This document shows positions 9,547 to 14,269 of a DNA stretch of 32,000 bases, in pieces. The notes under the pieces are model-generated. The model was given only the letters and a program-made list of their open reading frames with translations. It searched no databases and was not told the DNA's origin. Each line of letters begins with the position of its first letter. Position 1 is the first letter of the stretch. The position numbers and the translations under genes were made by a program. The stretch comes from Gammaproteobacteria bacterium (GTDB lineage: Bacteria > Pseudomonadota > Gammaproteobacteria > JBIOEC01): contig OZ257143.1 of assembly GCA_965279305.1 (NCBI GenBank), forward strand, positions 360,001-392,000, in the 5' to 3' direction.

Positions 9547-10755
9547 ATGCAGTTTATCCTCAAGCTCATTGGCGGTATCATAGGGGGCATAATTGTTGGT
9601 TATTTTGCTCCAGACGCTATCATCCGCTTTTTCATTACATTTGAACATTTATTCAATGAATTCTTAGGGTTTATTATCCCTTTTATCATTTTCTTTTTTA
9701 TTGCGAGCGGGATCACCAGCTTGCAGCGTAATTCAGGCCAGATTCTAGGGATTACCGTTGGAGCGGCTTATATTTCCACCGTATTGGCCGGTATATTTGC
9801 CTGTTTTGTGGCTGTTGAAGCCCTTTCTTTGATCGATACTACTGAGAAATTCATAGAGCCTGCTTCACAAACTTTAAAGCCTTATTTCAATATTGATATG
9901 CCACCTTTTACCGAGGTAACAGGCGCTTTAATTGCTGCCTTTTTATTCGGCATCGGTGCCAGCACTATGCGCAGCAAGTTAATTATCGACTTGTTAGGCG
10001 AAGGCAAAAACATCACCCAATGGGTGATCACTACCCTGATCCTACCTTTATTACCTTTTTATATTGCTTCCGTTTTCGTTAATTTAACCGCTCAGGGCAC
10101 TATTGTTACCACCTTACAAGCCTTTGGTTTAATACTTTTACTGGCTGTGGCATTACATTGGGCGTGGCTGGCTTTTCTGTATGGTATGGCAGGGTTTGTG
10201 AGTGGAACCAACGGATTCACCGCACTGAAGAATATGTTATCAGCTTATATGACAGGCGTTGGCACCATGTCTAGCGTTGCTACTATTCCGGTGGCTTTAA
10301 AGCAAACCCGTAAAAATGGCGTGAGCGAAGCTATTACTAATTTTACCATTCCCTTATTTGCCAATATTCATTTAAGCGGTAGCACTATTACCATTACCAC
10401 TTGCGTGGTGGCTGTAATGACATTAACCCATAGCGAGATGGTGCCTAGCGTTGGTCATTTGCTTCCTTTTATTATGATGCTAGGTTTAGTGATGGTAGCC
10501 GCTCCTGGCGTTCCCGGTGGTGCTGTGATGTCTGCTTTAGGCATTTTAACCAGCATGTTGGGCTTTACTGATTTATCCTTGGGTTTAATTATTGCACTGT
10601 ATATTGCACAAGATAGTTTTGGTACAGCATGCAATGTAACCGGTGATGGGGCGTTAGCTATTATGATTGATAAGCTAGTGCATAAAAAAGCATTATTAGT
10701 GCCTGAACCAGAAAGCGAAGAAGAAAAAGCGCTAGTTAAAGATATTCCTTCTTAA
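9547..10755 (+). CDS. Dicarboxylate/amino acid:cation symporter (DAACS/SLC1 family; SstT-like)
   Basis: 402-aa polytopic protein. SSVATIPVAL, IPLFANIHLSGSTITITT, AAPGVPGGAV and AQDSFGTACNVTGDG parallel the re-entrant loop motifs of SstT/GltP-type carriers. Confidence 0.8.
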   Translation: MQFILKLIGGIIGGIIVGYFAPDAIIRFFITFEHLFNEFLGFIIPFIIFFFIASGITSLQRNSGQILGITVGAAYISTVLAGIFACFVAVEALSLIDTTEKFIEPASQTLKPYFNIDMPPFTEVTGALIAAFLFGIGASTMRSKLIIDLLGEGKNITQWVITTLILPLLPFYIASVFVNLTAQGTIVTTLQAFGLILLLAVALHWAWLAFLYGMAGFVSGTNGFTALKNMLSAYMTGVGTMSSVATIPVALKQTRKNGVSEAITNFTIPLFANIHLSGSTITITTCVVAVMTLTHSEMVPSVGHLLPFIMMLGLVMVAAPGVPGGAVMSALGILTSMLGFTDLSLGLIIALYIAQDSFGTACNVTGDGALAIMIDKLVHKKALLVPEPESEEEKALVKDIPS

Positions 10756-11650
10756 GATAGCTAAATCCTGTAAACGAAAGAAGATATTTTCGTAGATGCG
10801 ACCACAGAAAAATGTTTCTAGGGTGCGCGGCGATACTCTTAATGTAGTATTCATTACCCTCTTGATATCTTCCTGCAATATAAAGCGCTCGAAATAAAGA
10901 TAAACATCGTCTGGAATAATATTGTGCTTTATATTTCATGAATTCTTGAGGTAATACGGCAGGATTAAAAACAGCATCAACAACATCTAAGCCTACTTCC
11001 GCATTTATATCAATTTGATTACGCATACTATTAGGATGTTTATAAACTTCTAAAACCAAATCTGAAATAGCATAACAATTAAATAAAGCTAAGGCTTGAG
11101 AAAAAACAGATACATCTTCTGCTATGCGCAGTTCTTCTACATAGGAAATTTTTTCAAACACTCGTTTATGAAATAGGCTAGCACCATTAGCAAAAGAACA
11201 TTTTTTATTAATATAATTCACAAAATTTTGCATTCGATCGTTTGATAAAGACTTGATCGGATGTTTCCGTATTTTACCTGAAGAATCAATAGAAGTATGA
11301 CCAGCAAAAACCACATCTACCGTTGGATGAGTTTGAATAAATTGACGAAAAGTTTTTAAAACCTCAGGTAATAATCGGTCATCGGCATCTAAAAATAGTA
11401 AGTAATCTCCTTTGGCTTCTCTGATGCCTGTATTTCTAGCAGCAGCAAGCCCTTTATTCTGTTGTTTAACATAATAAAGATTAGGGTGACTTTTAAGATG
11501 TTTTTCTACGACTTCATCGAGATTATCCGTTGACCCATCATTTATAATAATGAGTTCACTATTAGGATCATTTTGTTCCAAAAAAGATCCAATTGCCTTT
11601 TCAATAAAATGAGCATAATTGTAGGCAGGGATCACTACAGATATTTTCAT
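10736..11650 (-). CDS. Family 2 (GT-A fold) glycosyltransferase, soluble
   Basis: KISVVIPAYNYAHFIEKAI...IIINDGSTD...LFLDADD (DxD). No TM segments seen. I place the start at ATG 11650 (AAAGGA 4 nt upstream) rather than GTG 11668. Its 3' end overlaps the convergent transporter gene by 20 nt. Confidence 0.85.
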   Translation of the reverse strand: MKISVVIPAYNYAHFIEKAIGSFLEQNDPNSELIIINDGSTDNLDEVVEKHLKSHPNLYYVKQQNKGLAAARNTGIREAKGDYLLFLDADDRLLPEVLKTFRQFIQTHPTVDVVFAGHTSIDSSGKIRKHPIKSLSNDRMQNFVNYINKKCSFANGASLFHKRVFEKISYVEELRIAEDVSVFSQALALFNCYAISDLVLEVYKHPNSMRNQIDINAEVGLDVVDAVFNPAVLPQEFMKYKAQYYSRRCLSLFRALYIAGRYQEGNEYYIKSIAAHPRNIFLWSHLRKYLLSFTGFSYLKKEYL

Positions 11651-11674
11651 AAAGTCCTTTTCGTGCACTGATTA

Positions 11675-11989: not shown

Positions 11990-12004
11990 ATCGTTTCTCC
12001 TTTT

Positions 12005-14269
12005 TTATGCCGATGCTATTACTACATTCTGTAGTGGGGGTGGTTTCGGTGTTCCAAGGCTTTTTACTCTTACCTTGAGCTGCTTTGCCGCTGCGTGGTT
12101 AGTACGAAGCTCTTCTTTCCATTCCTCGAATTTTGTTTGTGCTTGTCCTAAATAAACATCCGTAAATTCTGATGTTTCAGTATTTCTCAATAATCCTGAT
12201 GCGTGTAGATCTGCCTCTCCTTCTGTTAATACTTTTACAACGGTTTCATATCCCTGTGTTTCTGCCATGGATTGTATGCTTACATGTAATAAATAAGCAG
12301 CACAATCGGCTGATCCCGCATGTTCTAATCTATCAATTAAGGATCCTGCTACTTCTAAACCATTTTCCTTTCTATTTTCAAACATACCTGGAAGTGAATA
12401 AAGAGGCGATATTTTATTGTGTAATATTTTTCTTATATTTGGCCAGGCGGCTTTTATATAAGGCTCTGGTAAATTTTGGCTCGTTATAAAATTACGTAAA
12501 TGCTCACAAAACCGTGAGCTGCCATTTTTATAGCCTAATAAACGTATTGTTTTACTAAATCCTTCGCCTTTTTCATGCGTACCTGAAACAACGGTTATAG
12601 TACTTTCTATTTTTTCGCGTATTCTTTCTTTAGCCACTTGGTCCGTACATTTTTCTTCTTTTTGTTCTTTTTCGATTGTTCTAATCTCAGACAAAAGAGC
12701 AAACTTAACTTTTTGTCGTAAGCGGCTATTAACAAACATATCCGTAGAAAAATAGACATCCAAAGATTTTTCCAGCTTGTCTGAAATCATTTTTTTAGGT
12801 TTTGAAATGAGTGAACTCGCCTCCAAATCACCTAATAAATTTTCTAATGCAAGCACCGTACGAGAAGCCCTTCTTAAAGATAAAATATTATAAGCAAGAC
12901 TTTCAGTTTCGTGCTTCATTTTTATTTCAAACAATGCTTCTTCAATAGCATTTACCGCATCAGCAGTGCTTTCACTGGCATGAATTTTAGTATTTAACAC
13001 TTCGAGTTGGTGCTGTCTATCTTTACCTACGCTTACCCATGAGCCTTTAACAACATTCTTATAATGCTTCTCTAAGCGCTCCAACATAATAAATCGCGTA
13101 TCAGACTTATGATCTCTGACTAATATTTTTTTACCGATTAATGTACTTCTTGAATGTAGAATATGACTTCTCAATTTTTTTAATTGTTTTTTTTGTTTTG
13201 TAGAAGAAGATAAATTCTGATCGGCTTTTTCAATAAAGCTTCTCCAAAAAAGCGAAACACCTGTTTTCAACTCGACTATAGCGGCCTCTAAGTTTGCATC
13301 ATCTTTAGAATCCGTTTTAAAATCATTAAAAACCCTCCTTAATTCTAATATATTCTCTTTTAAAGAGCGTCCAATATCTTCAGGAAAATTGATATTGGCT
13401 ATTCTTTCAATTTCTTTTACATTATCTTTTATGATTTCTGTGGCTTCAGCTATTTTTTCTTCTCTAAAAAGAGTTAGTTGAATCTTAATATGATCGACTT
13501 CTTCTTTATATTTTTTCAATGCCTCACTAGGAACTGCTTTAATGAGTAATTTTTTTCTTACTAAGCTATCTTTTAATTCATCCATTACTTTTTCAAAATC
13601 TAATACTGTATGAGATCCGTAAAGTAACTCTGTCATGCGTTTTCCAGGAGAAGGCATTCCAGGCAGTGGCTGTGATGTAATCCATGCTTTTATTTCTGAA
13701 AAACAATTCTCTATATCTTCTAAGGTACCACTTTTATGAATTTTATTCTTAAAAATTAAAAGCTGCTGTGAAAACTGGGTGTCTCCATATTTTTTAAAAT
13801 ATGTATCATATAAATTTGCTACTTCTGTATGAATGGCCAATATAGACTGACTATGATCTTTCCCAGGTAAATCGCCATTAACACGCAATTCTTGGCTCTT
13901 CTGAGTTAATAAAAGAGAGAATTTATTTTTAGTTATTTTTGCTAAAGTTTCTTGCTTAGCGATAGTGCCTATTAATGCTGCAATTGCATCATTTAACTCT
14001 TCTATGCTTTCAGTTTTTTGAAGCGAACTAATGAAAAGTGTTTGGTTAGCGCTTAATTCCGGTATATGACCCGTAAGTGTATTATAGTGCTTATATACAT
14101 TCTCAAACGCAGATATTATTTGTATTTTTTGGGCTTTAAATGCTATTAATTCTTTTTCTAGCTCCTTCTCAAAGTTTGCTAACTTAGCTAATAATTCAGA
14201 GGGATCGATTCTTTGTGGAGTGGGAGCTGTATTTTGTTCAGCCCTTTTATATGTAGTAGCGGTAACCAT
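12005..14269 (-). CDS. Orphan 754-aa Lys/Glu-rich helical repeat protein (candidate translocated effector)
   Basis: Long ORF in AT-rich DNA with no signal peptide and no catalytic motif that I recognise. It has at least 5 copies of a degenerate ~25-aa motif, and its C-terminal tail is TPKPPPLQNVVIASA. It ends 15 nt upstream of fis. Confidence 0.8.
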   Translation of the reverse strand: MVTATTYKRAEQNTAPTPQRIDPSELLAKLANFEKELEKELIAFKAQKIQIISAFENVYKHYNTLTGHIPELSANQTLFISSLQKTESIEELNDAIAALIGTIAKQETLAKITKNKFSLLLTQKSQELRVNGDLPGKDHSQSILAIHTEVANLYDTYFKKYGDTQFSQQLLIFKNKIHKSGTLEDIENCFSEIKAWITSQPLPGMPSPGKRMTELLYGSHTVLDFEKVMDELKDSLVRKKLLIKAVPSEALKKYKEEVDHIKIQLTLFREEKIAEATEIIKDNVKEIERIANINFPEDIGRSLKENILELRRVFNDFKTDSKDDANLEAAIVELKTGVSLFWRSFIEKADQNLSSSTKQKKQLKKLRSHILHSRSTLIGKKILVRDHKSDTRFIMLERLEKHYKNVVKGSWVSVGKDRQHQLEVLNTKIHASESTADAVNAIEEALFEIKMKHETESLAYNILSLRRASRTVLALENLLGDLEASSLISKPKKMISDKLEKSLDVYFSTDMFVNSRLRQKVKFALLSEIRTIEKEQKEEKCTDQVAKERIREKIESTITVVSGTHEKGEGFSKTIRLLGYKNGSSRFCEHLRNFITSQNLPEPYIKAAWPNIRKILHNKISPLYSLPGMFENRKENGLEVAGSLIDRLEHAGSADCAAYLLHVSIQSMAETQGYETVVKVLTEGEADLHASGLLRNTETSEFTDVYLGQAQTKFEEWKEELRTNHAAAKQLKVRVKSLGTPKPPPLQNVVIASA

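Follow-up and report, generated by a model that had tools for sequence, protein, structure and literature searches.

Allelic cassettes flanked by conserved genes are a well-known feature of O-antigen and capsule loci and of serogroup-determining LPS clusters. In E. coli, fis is the downstream gene of the dusB-fis operon, and Fis, reportedly in work by Ball et al. and Ninnemann et al., both of 1992, is said to regulate its own expression, with Fis sites overlapping the core promoter. An assay of E. coli Fis autoregulation is referred to in bioRxiv 10.1101/2024.09.25.615009, which also gives Fis1 and Fis3 of Legionella pneumophila as repressors of effector genes, in agreement with what an earlier note on this DNA had said of Legionella Fis paralogues; the part of that preprint that concerns Fis1, Fis2 and Fis3 cites Zusman et al. 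2014 for them. Local regulators adjoining effector genes are also known in Legionella, among them LelA, LelB and LelC, which are LysR-type, and a copper-responsive island (PMC12239595, PMC6989116). Such regulators are LysR-type or two-component and usually divergently transcribed, and no Legionella fis is known to share a transcript with a gene that it controls.

The locus that we discuss lies in a window of 32,000 nucleotides, the whole stretch of DNA analysed, and comprises three minus-strand open reading frames of 754, 104 and 304 aa, here called the trio; all features given below are on the minus strand. The first gene (12005-14269) encodes an orphan protein, the second (11675-11989) a Fis-family paralogue and the third (10736-11650) a GT2 (GT-A) glycosyltransferase. 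The GT2 frame as called begins at a GTG (10736-11668), but the ATG at 11650 is the most likely start: an AAGGA Shine-Dalgarno sequence lies 5 nt before it, and homologues begin MKISVVIP or MQLSIIIP. The gaps are therefore 15 nt between the orphan gene and fis and 24 nt between fis and the GT2 gene, in agreement with the earlier note. An AAGGAG Shine-Dalgarno sequence precedes fis by 7 nt. A sequence scan found no terminator-like site on the minus strand inside the cluster, and a weak promoter-like site (9/12 matches) at 11722-11694 within the 3' end of fis. The tight packing and lack of internal terminators described in the earlier note are thus confirmed. The neighbours are the divergent nadC, which adjoins the operon promoter, and a dicarboxylate/amino-acid symporter gene; a Ras-like protein is also encoded in the window. 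We rejected Legionella as the host, since NusA is 61.8% identical to that of L. adelaidensis, near the 60.6% found with E. coli.

The same order and tight spacing occur in L001, L002, L003/L004 and L039/L040, which with the window makes five loci in four lineages, L039/L040 being a third strain beside the three other lineages. The orphan protein is 75%, 38% and 25% identical in the further lineages, and GT2 alleles are 55-65% identical between the distant ones. Without selection acting on it, the survival of this arrangement while orphan and GT2 diverge so far would be difficult to explain. Together with a promoter common to all four lineages this supports the operon status proposed earlier, the three genes behaving as one conserved unit that is presumably co-transcribed.

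The most striking property of the locus, and a new finding, is the hypervariability of both genes flanking fis. In comparison with the otherwise near-identical L001, identity is 93-98.5% for flanking genes and 100% for Fis, but only 75% for the orphan and 61% for the GT2. In its GT2 alleles this pair of near-identical strains differs as much as distant lineages do. The divergence falls in three segments. The first (13200-14269) covers the orphan N-terminus and the first three of its repeat modules; here 62-79% of nucleotides agree with L001, where the flanks reach about 95%, the fall beginning at the start codon, with dN 0.25-0.30, dS 0.58-0.85 and a fourfold-site divergence of 0.41 against a background of 0.08-0.28. 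The second (12010-12450) covers the last module and the tail, where L039/L040 carries a third allele with 54-76% nucleotide identity to the window and to L001, these two being 90-99% alike; the break is at the orphan stop codon, and in the L039/L040 protein the last module is 60% and the C-terminus 40% identical. The third (10804-11650) is a whole-gene GT2 cassette, with allele A in the window and allele B in L001 and L039, whose GT2 proteins are 95% identical while that of L039 is 50% identical to the window; compared with L001 the nucleotides are 48-75% identical, the change being abrupt at the fis/GT2 junction and at about 10804, with a dS of 1.22 and a fourfold-site divergence of 0.54. In contrast fis has dN 0.004 and dS 0.10 against L001, and raised dS and fourfold-site divergence are confined to the variable parts. 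The third strain reassorts the alleles, with those of the GT2 and the orphan C-terminus assorting independently. From the sharp breaks at gene borders, the raised synonymous divergence and this reassortment we conclude that the near-invariant fis sits between independently exchanged cassettes. No repeats flanking the cassettes were found, which makes homologous exchange likelier than site-specific. The sharp fall in identity at gene borders, the synonymous divergence far above genome background and an allele tree decoupled from the strain tree are all as in O-antigen and capsule loci, but what is exchanged here is one glycosyltransferase together with parts of a repeat protein unrelated to it, and the conserved anchor between them is a regulator gene.

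The best promoter-like site of the region upstream of the orphan gene (10/12 matches) has a -35 hexamer TTGACA at 14383-14388, invariant in the four lineages, and a -10 hexamer TACACT at 14360-14365, the 17 nt spacing being kept at 17-18 nt in L001, L002 and L003; from its conservation it is very probably a single sigma-70 promoter shared by all four. Two matches to the Fis consensus accompany it. Box A (GTACAAATTATTGAC, 14384-14398) overlaps the -35, matches GNNNAWWWWWTNNNC and does not differ between the window, L001 and L003; L002 has a single mismatch. Box B (GCACATTTTTTATAC, 14337-14351) lies at about +3 to +17 from the inferred transcription start and is identical in L001, a perfect consensus in L003 (GAACATTTTTTGAAC) and one mismatch away in L002. 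Each box falls on an invariant block, A over the -35 and B over the +1, and in dinucleotide shuffles the chance of at least two in the 200-bp intergenic region is P = 0.0012. Fis autoregulation of the operon, which the earlier note had raised as a possibility, is plausible because of these two conserved boxes. The consensus for Fis is, however, a degenerate one and rich in A and T. The blocks might also owe their conservation to the promoter itself, to an UP element or to another regulator.

The most likely of the alternatives is that the three genes are not functionally coupled: a Fis paralogue with a global role in the nucleoid would lie by chance between weakly constrained, recombination-prone genes, their joint transcription would have no significance, and the conserved upstream blocks would be needed by the promoter and nadC alone. 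Each trio member does occur elsewhere without the other two, and AT-rich sequence often contains matches to the Fis consensus, the whole window having 11 where 13 are expected. However, the order and spacing persist despite the divergence of orphan and GT2, a GT2 gene adjoins fis in none of 26 generic Fis loci, and two boxes both on invariant blocks are improbable by chance, so that we consider this explanation unlikely.

In the case of the Fis protein the earlier assignment as a paralogue is confirmed, with matches to HTH_8 (3e-12) and to the Fis equivalog NF001659 (99.4 bits against a cutoff of 99) and a second Fis, P0016, on the same 1.87 Mb contig, which makes the trio member an extra paralogue. 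Residues 17-89 align to 25-97 of E. coli Fis, the four-helix core and the helix-turn-helix being kept in both, with the DNA-contact residues RGTLRKKL conserved, and the protein is 100% identical to that of L001 over 103 aligned residues and 99% to that of L039. It differs from E. coli Fis in having a short N-terminus that lacks the beta-hairpin arm region (no PF27465 match) and an added, clade-specific C-terminal tail of 15 aa (LISGTTKSRIAEEVS). As in E. coli, fis is a downstream gene of its operon and predicted Fis boxes overlap the core promoter, which would imply negative autoregulation, but the preceding gene is that for the 754-aa protein rather than dusB, and a GT2 gene follows. Fis1-3 of L. 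pneumophila likewise are multiple paralogues in one genome with N-termini unlike that of E. coli Fis, and have been reported to regulate virulence and effector genes; we compare them as a paralogue set, assigning orthology to none, and the host here is not Legionella.

The third protein is, as the earlier note had it, a soluble GT2, with a PF00535 match at 1.4e-36, the motifs DDGSTD and DADD and no TM segment (maximum KD19 1.48), and residues 251-286 form a C-terminal TPR-like motif matching 8bu0 at 7e-10. Relatives at 40-48% identity are in LPS-core loci, with GT9, WaaP/Kdo kinases, WaaA, LpxK, GT4, a WaaL-type ligase and MsbA as neighbours; the LPS assignment rests on these loci, the closest non-trio relatives (50-54%) being outside the set. 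The earlier note had set membership of a conserved LPS or capsule locus in relatives against its own reading, and this was found in part, for the 40-48% relatives only. We take the protein to be a member of an LPS-core-type family on this family evidence. The Pseudomonas oleovorans core GT2 (L011) is 40% identical to it over the full length, and its position is presumably that of the PA5004/WapH-type genes of the Pseudomonas waaP-to-waaL core cluster. Both are of about 300 aa with a GT-A domain and a C-terminal helical or TPR-like part, but where the Pseudomonas type is surrounded by WaaP/Kdo kinases, GT4, GT9, a WaaL-type ligase and MsbA, the trio GT2 is outside any LPS cluster, follows fis and is exchanged as a whole-gene allele.

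The orphan has no domain match in Pfam, NCBIfam, PADLOC or PHROG, as the earlier note had concluded, and no structural analogue in PDB or BFVD; its family has 13 representatives among 1.84 billion proteins, and the AF2 structure prediction is all alpha (pLDDT 82). Five motif copies noted earlier are present, at residues 79, 173, 314, 425 and 644. A single-sequence self Smith-Waterman alignment is not significant (58 against 47.7 +/- 8.9, with 9/60 shuffles reaching 58), but a profile of 14 family sequences, when matched with itself, reaches off-diagonal scores of 63-76 (probability 89-95%), well above controls (reversed profile at most 26, column shuffles at most 11, block shuffles at most 18), puts the motifs in register (1 with 3, 2 with 4, 4 with 5) and reveals a sixth copy at about 530-562. 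We conclude from the profile, the only level at which the repeats are visible, that they are real and the protein consists of six modules of about 105 aa: R1 (14092-13775), R2 (13774-13400), R3 (13387-13040), R4 (13039-12710), R5 (12709-12395) and R6 (12382-12110). The proposed origin by internal duplication thus stands. ITSQPLP is present at 197, ITSQNLP at 595 and LPGM at 201 and 626, but the two ITSQxLP copies are at non-equivalent positions, so that their likeness, offered as evidence for duplication, is coincidental. R4 has an invariant family core (R418, H453, S457, S469, R470 and Y506 among its residues), and this His/Ser/Asn/Ser-Arg/Tyr/Asp/Arg core suggests a single conserved site of binding or catalysis. 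Neither a signal peptide nor a TM segment was found, and the protein may be cytoplasmic or possibly secreted.

The repeat protein could be a T4SS effector, with Fis its local repressor and the GT2 a second effector or a modifier of the first. The family is restricted to Legionellales-like contigs (with a Legionella_OMP gene in L005), the gene for one distant member precedes a VirB-type T4SS operon by 18 nt, the protein is fast-evolving and mosaic, and its disordered C-terminal tail is of small and polar residues with hydrophobic ones near the end. The repression of effector genes by Legionella Fis1 and Fis3, the Ras-like protein of the window and the precedent of local regulators beside effector genes would also fit; as with LelA/B/C and the copper-responsive island, a regulator gene is coupled to a fast-evolving, lineage-restricted gene, although the regulator is here a Fis inside the operon and the effector status of its neighbour only putative. 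However, T4SS adjacency was seen in only 1/3 distant loci, no Dot/Icm genes were present in any fetched locus, no translocation signal, E-block or known effector regulatory box (PmrA/CpxR) was found, and the host is not Legionella. The GT2 is unrelated to known glycosylating effectors and its family is widespread in free-living Proteobacteria, and the LPS-core loci of its relatives tell against the glycosylating effector pair of the earlier note, in which "effector-like" reflected orphan status alone, with no effector feature demonstrated. We regard this explanation as improbable.

Equally doubtful is a role of the repeat protein as a cytoplasmic partner of the GT2 in making an envelope glycan, such as a scaffold or specificity factor bound through the TPR-like motif, with phage or predator pressure on the surface glycan diversifying both and fis giving growth-phase control: every trio lineage keeps the two genes, which are hypervariable where the rest of the neighbourhood is not, and the repeat protein has no export signal, but hundreds of GT2 homologues, those of LPS loci included, have no such partner, distant homologues of the repeat protein lack a GT2 and pair with a different orphan family, and the independent assortment of alleles argues against tight physical pairing.

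The explanation we prefer, to which we give about an even chance, is a Fis-autoregulated operon for variable surface-glycan modification and a diversifying, possibly secreted repeat protein, which appears tied to Fis and the GT2 by synteny alone. The conserved order of repeat protein, Fis paralogue and LPS-core-type GT2 is found in a small clade of Legionellales-like gammaproteobacteria that has been little sampled, and the three genes would be transcribed from one sigma-70 promoter by nadC. Because of the conserved boxes over the -35 and the transcription start, the operon's own Fis, or the other Fis of the genome, would most likely repress this promoter, a negative autoregulation like that of fis in E. 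coli. At the least fis would serve as a conserved homology anchor for independent exchange of its flanks by homologous recombination. The exchange of the repeat protein in segments fits an interaction surface under diversifying selection. The most likely function of the GT2 is to transfer a sugar to the LPS core or to another glycan of the envelope, and since it exists as exchangeable whole-gene alleles, strains would differ in their surface glycan.

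The 754-aa orphan (12005-14269), the Fis paralogue (104 aa, 11675-11989, with AAGGAG 7 nt upstream) and the GT2 glycosyltransferase (10736-11668 in its longest form) are three minus-strand ORFs, positioned exactly as the earlier note had them. The GT2 ATG at 11650 has AAGGA 5 nt upstream, homologues open with MKISVVIP or MQLSIIIP, and this ATG is almost certainly the true start; with GT2 taken to begin there, the gaps are indeed the 15 and 24 nt first described. A scan for minus-strand terminator-like sites found none within the cluster, as had been thought, and the 3' end of GT2 runs 20 nt into the convergent SDF-transporter gene. 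TM-like segments are absent from all three proteins. The single strand, the short gaps, the lack of an internal terminator and a gene order kept across divergent genomes support an operon, and the three genes would then be co-transcribed.

The orphan-Fis-GT2 order recurs at several other loci; where the contigs permit, nadC borders the trio at one end and the SDF transporter and OTCase genes border it at the other end. Identities to the window for orphan, Fis and GT2 respectively are 75%, 100% and 61% in a near-identical genome (L001), 38%, 70% and about 62% in a further lineage (L002), and 25%, 62% and 65% in another (L003/L004); for a third strain (L039/L040), Fis is at 99% and GT2 at 50%. 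NusA is 61.8% identical to that of L. adelaidensis and 60.6% to that of E. coli, and on sequence the host is not a Legionella. That the three genes are linked only incidentally would agree with the distant members of the orphan family, which show no linkage to Fis or GT2, but the recurrence of the order, with the same flanks, speaks against it and we consider it unlikely.

Fis is 100% identical between the window and L001 (over 103 residues), as against 61% for GT2, 75% for the orphan and about 96% elsewhere in the two genomes, and this contrast marks a hotspot of recombination and diversifying selection. All 15 flanking proteins are 93-98.5% identical. At the nucleotide level the promoter is at 90-94% and fis at 97-99%, whereas in GT2 identity drops to 48-75% exactly at the fis/GT2 junction and stays there until about 10804, beyond which it is back at 96%, and the orphan is at 62-79% from its start codon to about 13200 and at 90-98% towards its 3' end. 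For the same pair, dS and fourfold-site divergence at identical residues are 1.22 and 0.54 for GT2 and 0.40-0.85 and 0.41-0.42 for orphan residues 1-560, as against 0.10 and 0.08 for fis and 0.12-0.35 and 0.11-0.28 for the neighbouring genes; by these figures the divergence of GT2 and the orphan exceeds mere relaxed constraint. The distance between GT2 alleles of the near-identical genomes (61%) equals that between distant lineages (55-65%).

The third strain carries the L001-type GT2 allele (95% to L001, 50% to the window). In modules R3-R5 of its orphan, stretches that are 100% window-like alternate with stretches that are 100% L001-like, and a third allele, at 54-76% identity to both window and L001, occupies the final 440 nt up to the stop codon. 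From the allele pattern in L001 and this strain fis is therefore a conserved island between independently exchanged segments. Site-specific inversion of the shufflon type, which the presence of Fis suggested, was rejected as the variable segments are flanked by neither inverted nor direct repeats and there is no invertase gene; with no sign of site-specific rearrangement, homologous recombination with divergent donors is the most likely mechanism of exchange. On the other side of the promoter, nadC at 14700-15000 has 81-90% nucleotide identity to L001 and dS of 0.35, as against 0.12 for the adjoining OMP and znuA genes, and the recombination-prone zone may reach into nadC.

The top promoter-like site of the region, TTGACA-17-TACACT at 14388-14360, lies upstream of the orphan, and its -35 and -10 elements, spaced 17-18 nt, are kept in all four lineages. 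Two 15-mers that fit the Fis consensus GNNNAWWWWWTNNNC sit on the invariant upstream blocks: candidate box A, GTACAAATTATTGAC, over the -35, and candidate box B, GCACATTTTTTATAC, at about +3 to +17. The consensus has 11 matches across the 32-kb window, compared with 13 expected by chance, and 2 of these are within the 200-bp spacer, for which the probability of at least two matches is 0.0012 from shuffles of the spacer itself. The conserved promoter and the two candidate boxes therefore favour an operon with Fis-type autoregulation, through binding sites predicted from the consensus alone. A riboswitch or other structured leader was ruled out, since the leader has no match to any Rfam family and a fold z-score of 0.28, with no notable structure. 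Upstream of box A, in the nadC/orphan intergenic region at 14421-14430, all four lineages have a near-palindrome, AAGT(C/T)AACTT, that may be the site of another regulator or a piece of a divergent nadC promoter. A 20-nt probe from the promoter block gave 66 chance matches in metagenomes, none with any of the three genes.

Fis is regarded as a nucleoid protein of global action and high conservation, and its gene usually travels with dusB. Proteins of this family bind and bend DNA as homodimers. Here the gene 5' of fis encodes the 754-aa repeat protein, which has no Dus domain. Pfam and NCBIfam uphold the identities first proposed for both Fis and GT2. The trio Fis has HTH_8 (PF02954, 3.2e-12), passes the Fis equivalog NF001659 marginally (99.4 bits, cutoff 99), and aligns over residues 17-89 with residues 25-97 of E. 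coli Fis (E 5e-19). The four-helix core is kept and the DNA-contact motif of the recognition helix, RGTLRKKL, is invariant in the Fis alignment. Relative to E. coli Fis the N-terminus lacks about 8 residues, the N-terminal beta-hairpin arm of the family is missing, and unlike most relatives this Fis has no precomputed PF27465 match. The arm is required for invertase activation. The trio Fis proteins share a C-terminal tail beginning LISG(T/S) with a second Fis encoded on the same 1.87-Mb contig. A scan of the genome collection with the Fis protein gave, among the matches listed, generic Fis loci only, at up to 56% identity and with the generic GTLRKKLE pattern, and 0 of 26 such loci (genome representatives among the matches listed) had a GT2 neighbour.

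The 754-aa protein has no match in Pfam or NCBIfam. It had been proposed to have arisen by internal duplication, and the five motif copies on which this was based are confirmed, at residues 79, 173, 314, 425 and 644. The repeats are detectable only with a 14-sequence family profile. In the single sequence a self Smith-Waterman score of 58 (shuffles 47.7 +/- 8.9, with 9 of 60 at 58 or more) is not significant and self-BLASTP found no significant repeat, and with hhalign motif-centred pieces of a 3-sequence alignment gave weak in-register matches at probabilities up to 14.6%. An exhaustive profile search of 1.84 billion proteins put the family at 13 representatives, and the 14-sequence profile aligned to itself has off-diagonal scores of 76, 70, 68 and 63 (probability 89-95%), with controls at no more than 26 (reversed), 11 (column shuffles) and 18 (7-column block shuffles). 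The register sets motif 1 on 3, 2 on 4 and 4 on 5, and adds a sixth copy at residues of about 530-562; each unit also holds a second conserved block, SR....L...L.....LP. From these self-alignments the orphan has six modules of about 105 aa (R1-R6), so that the repeats are real at profile level and make up six modules, and they are ancient since there is no repeat at DNA level. The duplicated ITSQPLP/ITSQNLP and LPGM elements, also offered as signs of duplication, were discarded as they occupy different positions within modules.

An AF2 model from the deeper alignment is all-helical (pLDDT 82, pTM 0.56), where a first model from 3 sequences had been unusably poor (pLDDT 55). The best hits were a designed helical protein at E 0.017 in a PDB profile search, E 0.2 with TM up to 0.15 for Foldseek of the model against PDB, and E 0.012 with TM about 0.1 in BFVD. 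No module significantly matches known helical repeat families (TPR, HEAT, ARM, Sel1, spectrin and others) in sequence or structure. The 754-aa protein defines a new and very rare six-repeat helical family without structural analogue. Residues R418, H453, S457, S469, R470 and Y506 are invariant across the family and N461, D510 and R518 nearly so, all in module R4. A metagenome scan with a 4-sequence alignment found no true match, and an origin in a defence system or phage was rejected as PADLOC and PHROGs gave nothing and there is no plasmid homologue.

Dot/Icm effectors carry a C-terminal translocation signal with an E-block, small polar residues and a hydrophobic residue at -3/-4. The orphan's C-terminal tail, KSLGTPKPPPLQNVVIASA, is disordered (pLDDT <50), small/polar with a hydrophobic end and lacks a Glu-rich block, and tails are not conserved in the family. 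In three loci (L005 4193-8244, L006 4194-8127 and L007 4475-8169) a member of a second orphan family (509-598 aa, 25-30% mutual identity) comes directly before a distant repeat-protein relative, the two genes overlapping or lying at most 12 nt apart. This second family is separate from that of the repeat protein, with no match to the repeat-protein family HMM, the window or Pfam. In L007 a VirB-type T4SS operon (virB2/B3/B4...B9-like) follows the pair after 18 nt, and another contig bearing a distant family member has a Legionella_OMP gene. The T4SS adjacency, the Legionella_OMP gene and the Ras-like gene of the window are thus hints of a Legionellales-type, secretion-associated lifestyle, short of effector status. 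There are no Dot/Icm genes in the window or the retrieved loci.

The Ras-like gene (20388-21317, minus strand) encodes a 309-aa protein like Ras-family small GTPases (PF00071, 2.4e-7) and is 98% conserved in L001; such eukaryotic-type proteins are typical of intracellular Legionellales-type bacteria. Between lysR and this gene there is a strain-specific swap, with an HVO_A0114-type HTH gene in the window (19535-19897, minus strand) and a BrnT/BrnA toxin-antitoxin pair in L001 (4159-4735) instead. A PIN-domain (VapC-like) toxin gene (4359-4745, minus strand) lies between rimP/nusA and a response-regulator gene. At 25425-29331 (plus strand) four ORFs of 228, 162, 603 and 202 aa without Pfam match split the T2SS operon into gspJ/K (23465-25280, minus strand) and gspI/H/G/F (29335-31959, minus strand); GC falls to 0.29 at 27501-28500, and foreign or orphan genes seem to have been inserted in the T2SS cluster.

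GT2 has PF00535 over residues 10-174 (1.4e-36), with DDGSTD and LDADD motifs that include the DxD of nucleotide-sugar binding, and its family is widespread, with proteins of about 300 aa and 1546 matches below 1e-20. At every trio locus, that of the window included, GT2 is 3' of fis, between nadC and the SDF transporter gene, and only relatives at 40-48% identity sit in LPS-core clusters. Such relatives lie 3' of a GT9 gene (L008, L009), among WaaA, LpxK, GT9, GT4 and Kdo-kinase genes (L010), and in Pseudomonas oleovorans (L011) between WaaP-type kinases with a carbamoyltransferase and a WaaL-type ligase with MsbA. Because of these relatives an envelope-glycan role is the default reading, and the LPS core is probably the acceptor. 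The C-terminus, residues 251-286 (10793-10900), matches consensus TPR proteins (8bu0, E 7e-10), and some family members have precomputed TPR Pfam matches; this part could serve as a module for protein contacts in a GT-A enzyme that is ordinary in other respects. Such a module would suit a repeat protein that serves as partner or scaffold of GT2, a doubtful proposal given that distant members of the orphan family occur away from GT2. The glycosylating effector pair of the earlier note, to which the secretion hints lend something, is likewise improbable, as the LPS-core setting of the relatives leaves a protein-glycosylating GT2 unsupported.

The best-supported reading, to which we give an even chance, is an autoregulated Fis-paralogue operon that joins a variable glycosyltransferase of LPS type to a diversifying, possibly secreted, six-repeat protein, invariant fis sitting between independently recombining cassettes. 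The original observation is upheld; of its interpretation the operon is supported, autoregulation is plausible and the protein-glycosylating effector is not supported. The autoregulatory logic appears to be like that of E. coli dusB-fis, with different operon partners, and the divergence pattern is that of O-antigen-type cassette loci, with a regulator gene as the conserved anchor instead. Multiple paralogues with roles in virulence regulation are known for Legionella Fis1-3 (bioRxiv 10.1101/2024.09.25.615009), and a fis paralogue transcribed together with variable target genes, as predicted for the trio, is not described in that literature. A more speculative extension, to which we give little weight, is a "Fis-anchored diversity locus", in which Fis would be kept invariant both as autoregulator and as homology anchor between two independently exchanged cassettes, the LPS-type GT2 and a secreted or translocated segmental mosaic of a hitherto undescribed 105-aa helical repeat. 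If true, surface-glycan type and a host- or phage-interaction factor would be expressed together in step with growth phase but shuffled against each other within populations.

Here both predicted operon partners of a Fis paralogue are among the most variable genes nearby, and the promoter has conserved candidate Fis boxes; with the trio one can test whether a nucleoid-associated protein acts as a local, self-contained regulator. In this intracellular-type bacterium the hotspot probably bears on surface antigenicity and may also influence how the cell interacts with host or phage.
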